Source: Escherichia coli
Lineage (GTDB): Bacteria; Pseudomonadota; Gammaproteobacteria; Enterobacterales; Enterobacteriaceae
NCBI RefSeq assembly: GCF_003334355.1
Contig: NZ_QOWP01000005.1
Direction: 5' to 3' (one strand)
DNA: 64,000 nucleotides
Shown here: positions 15,652 through 16,650 of the stretch, piece after piece
Layout of the letters: every line of letters starts with the position of its first letter
How positions within the stretch are numbered: the first letter of the stretch is position 1
Made by a program: the position numbers and the translations under genes
Notes under the pieces: model-generated
Database searches by the model: none
What the model was told of the DNA's origin: nothing
What the model saw: the letters and a program-made list of their open reading frames with translations, nothing else

Positions 15652-16650
15652 TTAGCGTTTCGCTTTACTGCTTCGCTGGGTCAGCAAGATATTCGCCAGC
15701 ACCGCCACCACGATGATGACGCCGCGTACCACCTGCTGGAAAAAGGAGTTAATACCGAGCAGCACCAGACCGTTACCGATTAGCGTAATCACCAGCACAC
15801 CAAGCAATGTACCGAACAGGGAACCGCGACCGCCGGAAAGTGCCGTACCGCCGACCACGACCGCGGCGATGACGTCAAACTCCAGACCGTTTGCGGCACC
15901 TGCGTTACCAGAACCGAGGCGCGCCGCCAACAAAATGCCGGTCACCGCCGCTAATAATCCCGAAAGGGTAAAGATAAGAATGCGCACCCGACGAACGTTG
16001 ATGCCGCACAACTGCGCCGCCGTAGCATTACCGCCAACGGCAAAAACCGAGCGCCCGAAGGCGGTTTTGCGGCTGATGAACACAAACAGCGCAAACAACA
16101 CAATCATGATCAGCGCGGATACCGGCACACCGAGAAATTGTCCGCCCAGCCAGTCCAGCACCTCGTTTTCGTCAATCGGCACTGGCAGGGCGTTCGTCAT
16201 AAACAGCCCCATTCAGCGCAGGGCGCTCCACAGCCCCAGTGTGGCAACGAAACTTGGTACGTTAAACACGCCGCGCAGCACCCCGGCGAGCGTTCCCATC
16301 AGCGCGCCTAACAGCAACACCAGCAGACAAGCAATCGCCAACGGAACTTCAAATTGCAGCAAAAATGCCAGGCACACCGAGACAAAAGCCACCATCGGCC
16401 CAACGCTGACATCAATCTCACCGGAGATAATAATCAGCGTCATCGCCCAGGCGGCAATCCCAATGGTGGCGGCATCGCGCAGCACGTTCATCTGGTTATT
16501 CAATGAGATAAAGCCAGGCGCGTTCAGGGAGAAGACCAGATAAAGAATGGCAATCACCACCAGCAAACCGATCTCATTAATATGGCGACTGACAAATTGT
16601 TTGAGCGAGACGCTCTTGCCCTGCGGCAATGGTAATGACGAAGCAGACAT
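15652..16650 (-). pseudogene. yphD: ABC sugar-transporter permease YphD, interrupted by an in-frame TGA (145 aa + stop + 186 aa in one frame)
   Basis: Minus-strand reading across 16230-16201 is TGG AGC GCC CTG CGC TGA ATG GGG CTG TTT = WSALR*MGLF; ORFs 16213..16650 and 15652..16212 share one frame and together make a RbsC/AraH-type permease. Confidence 0.75.

Follow-up and report, generated by a model that had tools for sequence, protein, structure and literature searches.

The described proteins closest to the gene considered here are the sugar permeases RbsC and AraH, and YphD of Escherichia coli K-12 (b2546), which the K-12 record annotates as a putative ABC transporter membrane subunit. 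A Keio deletion of yphD in K-12 is viable, which indicates that loss of the gene is tolerated, and lower long-term starvation-induced ampicillin tolerance has been reported for it (PMC8597633). Besides this tolerance screen, the only item found in the literature on the function of the yph operon or on yphD pseudogenes is a mention of YphF in proteomics.

The locus can also be compared with strain-specific nonsense pseudogenes of E. coli and Shigella. As in these, one nucleotide change has placed an early stop in an accessory transporter gene that is dispensable, the neighbouring genes are intact and secondary decay is not yet seen. The difference is that the region is not generally decaying in the manner of Shigella: only 1 of 57 genes is hit and the 64 kb contain no IS element.

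Identity of yphD and its operon

The stretch of E. coli DNA analysed (64,000 nt, hereafter the window) is colinear with positions 2,660,214-2,724,157 of E. coli K-12 MG1655. As in K-12, yphD is located between yphE and yphC, with yphF, yphG, yphB and yphA nearby, and the order hcaD-yphA / yphB-yphC-yphD-yphE-yphF-yphG-yphH-glyA is the same. The gene is 98.9% identical to K-12 yphD over 999 nt without gaps (11 nucleotide differences), and at the protein level V106I and a stop are the only differences. The uninterrupted 332-codon frame of K-12 is nevertheless absent: with TGA in place of GGA, a single chain of 332 aa is impossible. The features of the gene and of its operon partners are the following.

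15652..16650, minus strand: yphD (b2546 orthologue), putative CUT2/RbsC-type ABC sugar permease gene with one nonsense codon, identified by K-12 identity, Pfam and profiles
16213..16215, minus strand: TGA at codon 146, from GGA (Gly146); G>T on the coding strand, that is C>A on the plus strand at 16215
16216..16650 (16213..16650 including the stop), minus strand: N-terminal ORF, 145 aa, covering RbsC profile positions 11-135
15652..16212, minus strand: C-terminal ORF, 186 aa from Met147, covering RbsC profile positions 156-317
16675-18186, minus strand: yphE, ATPase, upstream operon partner, intact
18209-19192, minus strand: yphF, binding protein, upstream operon partner, intact
14525-15586, or to 15619 from an upstream ATG, minus strand: yphC, downstream, intact
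13641-14513, minus strand: yphB, downstream, intact

When the stop is replaced by Gly, residues 55-316 of this repaired protein match positions 4-268 of the 269 of Pfam BPD_transp_2 (PF02653; E = 1.7e-36). It also aligns in one stretch with two NCBIfam profiles, scoring 226.6 bits over positions 12-317 of 321 in RbsC and 222.3 bits over positions 20-325 of 333 in AraH. The equivalog cut-offs are much higher (398 bits for RbsC, 378 bits for AraH), and we therefore consider YphD to be a paralogue within the family of CUT2-type sugar permeases, neither RbsC nor AraH, rather than a named transporter. Like RbsC and AraH, YphD has the conserved TL......RG motif of the family and the G199/G206 loop, and its operon likewise encodes an ABC ATPase with two domains as well as a binding protein of the Peripla_BP_4 family; unlike them, YphD is truncated in the window. 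In a public contig whose locus is identical to the window (L004, see below), the yphE product carries two ABC_tran domains and the yphF product matches Peripla_BP_1/Peripla_BP_4.

The annotated start of yphC (window 14525-15619, minus strand) varies between records: the RefSeq annotations of HS and AR_0369 use the upstream ATG and give 364 aa, against 353 aa in the K-12 record. On the opposite strand of yphD, a 276-aa antisense ORF at 15713-16543 (plus strand) matches no family and was treated as spurious. A consensus scan for promoters and terminators gave matches within chance expectation.

A probably recent nonsense codon in yphD

Of the 333 codons in 15652-16650, only one inside the frame is a stop, codon 146, where the minus strand reads ...CTG TGG AGC GCC CTG CGC TGA ATG GGG CTG TTT.... 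An ATG (16212-16210) directly follows the TGA (16215-16213) in the same frame, and the C-terminal 186-aa ORF could be produced by reinitiation only. The immediate surroundings of the stop contain four further features.

16226..16229, minus strand: GGAG, the sole Shine-Dalgarno-like motif upstream of ATG147, read from the sequence; its spacing of 13 nt is poor
16187..16210, minus strand: RNA hairpin just 3' of UGA-AUG, going from about -3 to -10 kcal/mol through the GCC change
16189, minus strand: synonymous, lineage-private change GCA>GCC (Ala154), 26 nt 3' of the stop
16238-16230 and 16211-16203, minus strand: two 9-nt direct repeats TGGGGCTGT bracketing codon 146, the substrate of a 27-nt deletion in strain SW071618

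The initial annotation, made from the letters of the window alone, had proposed that an in-frame TGA splits yphD into two colinear ORFs of 145 and 186 aa in the same frame. This is what the sequence, the ORF list and the translation contain, and the length that it gave for intact K-12 YphD agrees with b2546 (999 nt, 332 aa). Its description of an ATG right behind the stop, preceded at 13 nt by a poorly spaced GGAG, is also accurate. A chance pattern of ORFs can be ruled out by the one-stretch profile alignment of the repaired protein and by the synteny with K-12 yphB-yphG.

The same annotation had guessed a change from GGA to TGA, and it had named beforehand a K-12 reference sequence with the same TGA as an observation that would refute its reading. 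K-12 has GGA and no TGA at this codon, and codon 146 is equally GGA (Gly) in HS, WCHEC020031 and AR_0369, which makes GGA the ancestral codon. The yphD of the window differs from HS and WCHEC020031 at two positions in 1,101 nt, the G>T at 16215 that converts GGA to TGA and the synonymous GCA>GCC at 16189, and by 2 nt from the AR_0369 allele. AR_0369 is the nearest complete genome, with 19 differing sites in 24 kb, these two included. The two changes were considered as one clustered event, but with 19 differences in 24 kb about 0.37 pairs this close would be expected, so that their proximity is not significant. With a sequence 33 nt upstream, the new GCC at 16189 also forms an 8-nt direct repeat (CGCCCTGC); this may be coincidence.

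The rarity of the allele was assessed by megablast with a 35-nt query centred on the mutated base, which matches only if the central base agrees. The wild-type GGA version, serving as positive control, matched 4,820 complete RefSeq E. coli genomes exactly, whereas no genome of this set matched the TGA version. TGA-containing 81-mers of both major haplotypes (HS-like and K-12-like) likewise had no exact match in complete RefSeq E. coli genomes, and a 90-mer combining GGA with GCC was present in no complete genome at 100%. Metagenome contigs were scanned with the 19 nt that directly follow the site on its 3' side; among 80 readable loci 78 were yphD, all 78 with G. The two others (L046 and L113), candidates for junctions with foreign DNA at nt 437, are chance 19-mer matches in unrelated organisms.

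Of the 57 full-length K-12 genes in the window, yphD alone has an internal stop and none has a frameshift. Since a single gene among 57 is disrupted, and only 2 nt separate it from intact alleles, its inactivation appears recent and isolated. An origin of the allele in Shigella was rejected: the 145-aa record named Shigella sonnei is a contig-end truncation with wild-type G, and the window, yphD apart, contains neither pseudogenes nor IS elements.

Predicted consequences for YphD and YphDEF transport

A library-wide search returned 38,340 relatives, and 84 full-length homologues (32-56% identity), single chains of about 310-350 aa, were aligned. Conservation of Gly146 in this alignment is 90% or more, and T137 and L138, which belong to the same motif, are conserved with it. 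An AlphaFold2 model computed from the alignment (mean pLDDT 95, pTM 0.92) places residue 146 within a continuous helix, 133-152. Sequence search detected no homologue of YphD with a solved structure, and the best Foldseek matches, membrane domains of type II importers, were weak (TM 0.45-0.49).

In the putative sugar ABC importer YphDEF, YphD is the sole membrane component. Through the G>T change from GGA to TGA, translation would end after residue 145, in the fifth predicted transmembrane helix. The 145-aa product is predicted to comprise TM1-TM4 and the first 13 residues of helix 133-152, that is about two thirds of the fifth, and would lack TM6-10 as well as the cytoplasmic loop that couples the permease to the ATPase YphE. 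Of the cut helix, the 186-aa fragment has the last 6 residues; it also contains TM6-TM10 and, on the cytoplasmic side, the conserved GR..AxGGN..AA..GI loop (G199-G206). A fraction of the ribosomes may resume at AUG147 or pass the UGA by readthrough; in neither case would Gly146 or an unbroken helix be restored. Because the helix is cut and Gly146 is either missing from the fragments or replaced on readthrough, we infer that neither fragment, nor both together, nor a readthrough product would work, and that YphDEF transport is most likely lost. That the transporter is probably inactive had already been suggested from the stop itself; the conservation of Gly146 among the 84 homologues and its position in helix 133-152 strengthen the suggestion.

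The yphD stop could exert polarity on yphC and yphB. In the mRNA between the stop and yphC, G exceeds C all along. Such a composition is unfavourable for Rho loading, so that strong polarity is not predicted from this untranslated stretch; yphC has its own GAGGG Shine-Dalgarno sequence.

The same stop and other lesions in public sequences

The exact 145-aa and 186-aa sequences are already present in public protein collections. Contig L004, from the Logan assembly of ERR4578542 and present in 6 samples, matches the window at 100% over 6,050 nt, TGA and GCC included. Most other 145-aa records, the S. sonnei one among them, are contig-end truncations that keep the wild-type G and give no evidence for TGA.

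The identical TGA was also found in three loci of a K-12-like clade (L014, L016 and L020), which over 6.5 kb differ from K-12 by only 5-7 nt but from the window by about 87-89 nt. They have a second derived SNP in common and each carries private changes, which indicates that the stop was inherited within that clade. Another locus, L021, has the TGA on a further K-12-like background. The window and the K-12-like TGA loci differ at flanking markers on both sides of the site, at 46 nt upstream and at 26 nt downstream. A common recombination tract would thus need to be shorter than about 90 nt, and independent origin is the simpler reading. Two of the K-12-like loci (L016 and L020; GCA_049980845.1 and GCA_049980425.1) also have a GAA>TAA nonsense mutation in yphB, leaving fragments of 105 and 162 aa, a second hit in the operon.

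Other lesions fall close to codon 146. Strain SW071618 (L034, NZ_CM129854.1) has an in-frame 27-nt deletion between the TGGGGCTGT repeats and loses nine residues, Gly146 among them; RefSeq annotates its 324-aa yphD product as an intact ABC transporter permease. Logan assembly SRR33098971 (L026) carries a 13-nt deletion immediately after codon 146, and L018 and L022 carry 1-nt deletions around codon 143. L015, L017, L018, L019, L022 and L026 are further loci with independent yphD lesions, among which are also 1-nt insertions around codons 125-129, and in L019 a run of N occupies the same place in yphD. The cluster representatives include a yphD-yphC fusion (P0031) and an internal deletion (P0037).

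Public contigs end at yphD nt 435-440 (window 16216-16211) much more frequently than at neighbouring positions. Partial proteins of 145 and 146 aa lie on 36 and 37 contigs respectively; neighbouring lengths are represented by 1 contig for 141 aa and 4 for 143 aa, and partials of 138, 144, 147, 148, 150 and 153 aa are absent. The contigs concerned (L005-L013, L027-L033) come from many samples and several haplotypes; GCA_014057085.1, GCA_013423585.1 and ERR019834 are examples of samples with such ends. A listing artefact was tested as the explanation and rejected; the pile-up is real. Partials on the right-hand side show no matching excess at this site. Complete genomes contain no insertion there, and the one partial match examined was the 27-nt deletion. 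The cause may be branching of the assembly graph, an insertion present in certain lineages, or difficult sequence context.

Weighing the alternative readings

We hold with good confidence that yphD in the window is a genuine, recent and lineage-specific nonsense pseudogene, with YphDEF transport most likely lost. The initial annotation had also raised a sequencing error, and a base-calling or assembly error masking an intact yphD would agree with the absence of the TGA from every complete RefSeq genome, with the contig ends piling up at nt 435-440 in public assemblies, and with the odd lesions within 10 nt in L018, L021, L022 and L026, which hint at a difficult sequence context; the pile-up in particular leaves some possibility of a locally error-prone context at codon 146. 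Yet an error is very unlikely. L004, independent and seen in 6 samples, carries both private changes, and its match to the window over 6,050 nt, TGA included, argues against a one-off sequencing error. Within the K-12-like clade, strains that otherwise differ carry the TGA and a further derived SNP together, the other 56 genes of the window are free of frameshifts and stops, so that the assembly is not generally poor, and the site, read from the sequence, lies outside Dam/Dcm motifs and homopolymers. If the stop is real, its recurrence may be more than accident: with the same G>T in at least two lineages, codon 146 could be a local mutational hotspot, or loss of YphDEF could be selected. The identical TGA on HS-like and K-12-like haplotypes speaks for this, as do the fact that G>T perfects the inverted repeat AGCGC-CCT-GCGCT and the presence of the 27-nt and 13-nt deletions and other lesions within about 25 nt. 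We nevertheless judge it unlikely. All carriers were found through exact fragments in about 15 billion proteins, and for any nonsense change that is tolerated, sampling depth alone would be expected to produce recurrence; in unbiased metagenome contigs yphD is broken in 3 of 58 cases, not more often than its operon neighbours (2/25, 1/32, 4/38 and 4/29). Among the 2,877 possible substitutions in the gene, G436T reaches only the 22nd percentile for hairpin stabilisation (-0.6 kcal/mol). On the same scale A462C is at the 9th percentile, and mutation templated by the quasipalindrome was set aside as unproven. Equally doubtful is the broader proposal of a small hypermutable patch around codon 146, combining recurrent G>T that completes the inverted repeat, deletions between direct repeats and contig breaks about 10 times as frequent as at neighbouring positions.

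The genuine stop could still be compatible with function if YphD were made in two pieces. A UGA-AUG junction is a favourable arrangement for termination-reinitiation (translational coupling), so the AUG right after the UGA may be used and yield the C-terminal fragment; the halves of LacY, expressed as two segments, can reportedly form a working permease. The yphD locus resembles these systems in its in-frame UGAAUG, preceded at 13 nt by the weak GGAG, and in two ORFs that together contain every residue but Gly146 and are thus near the whole protein; furthermore, the downstream fragment shows no further decay. It differs from them in that the junction arose by mutation and lies within a transmembrane helix at a near-invariant Gly, not in a loop or at a domain boundary. 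Co-assembly of the 145-aa and 186-aa halves into a working permease is accordingly highly improbable: the cut falls within the continuous and confidently modelled helix 133-152, the one residue lost is near-invariant in the family, and none of the 4,820 complete genomes or of the 78 metagenome contigs shows the arrangement, so that it is not a conserved architecture. The absence of decay is equally expected of a very recent mutation, 2 nt from intact alleles. As for recoding of the UGA, by selenocysteine or by efficient programmed readthrough giving a full-length protein, a hairpin begins 5 nt after the UGA and is strengthened to about -10 kcal/mol by the second private change of the lineage, and in E. 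coli UGA with a following A terminates less strongly than some other stop contexts. Against these two points, an Rfam scan of the region on both strands at E<=1 gave no match, no selenocysteine-type signal was found, homologues have Gly and not Cys or Sec at column 146, K-12-like carriers of the TGA keep GCA and lack the strengthened hairpin, and any residue other than Gly would replace the near-invariant Gly146. We attach next to no weight to recoding, and retain the reading of a recent nonsense pseudogene.

Other features of the window

Some differences from reference genomes lie outside the yphD gene. In E. coli HS, an IS1A is inserted between yphG and yphF, upstream of the transporter genes (L001 815-1512). 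Between iscS and iscR, the window has an insertion of about 127 nt relative to K-12 (1431-1557), which contains GGGAGCTTACATAAGTAAGTGACCGGAGTGAG and appears to resemble the ERIC/IRU intergenic repeat. The iscR-trmJ intergenic region (2224-2408) consists of two tandem units of about 91-94 nt, against three in K-12 MG1655. Finally, two intergenic stretches of about 130 nt, one downstream of srmB (54114-54242) and one in the spacer between yphH and glyA (23930-24060), each show 85-88% similarity to the K-12 counterpart of the other and look like copies of a dispersed intergenic repeat.

Significance of the yphD allele

The yphD event is an ordinary pseudogene, and its allele was already in public databases, though undescribed. 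The presence of the same stop in a second clade illustrates that identical loss-of-function alleles recur in a heavily sampled species. If the proposal of a hypermutable or selected site were true, template-switch or slippage mutagenesis would have a natural hotspot at codon 146, or selection against YphDEF would have acted on this codon repeatedly. The combination of the TGA with GCC at 16189 provides a convenient marker of the lineage of the window. In this lineage, yphD should be annotated as a pseudogene, and YphDEF treated as absent in metabolic and phenotype predictions; the lineage might also have the starvation ampicillin-tolerance phenotype of the K-12 yphD deletion (PMC8597633).
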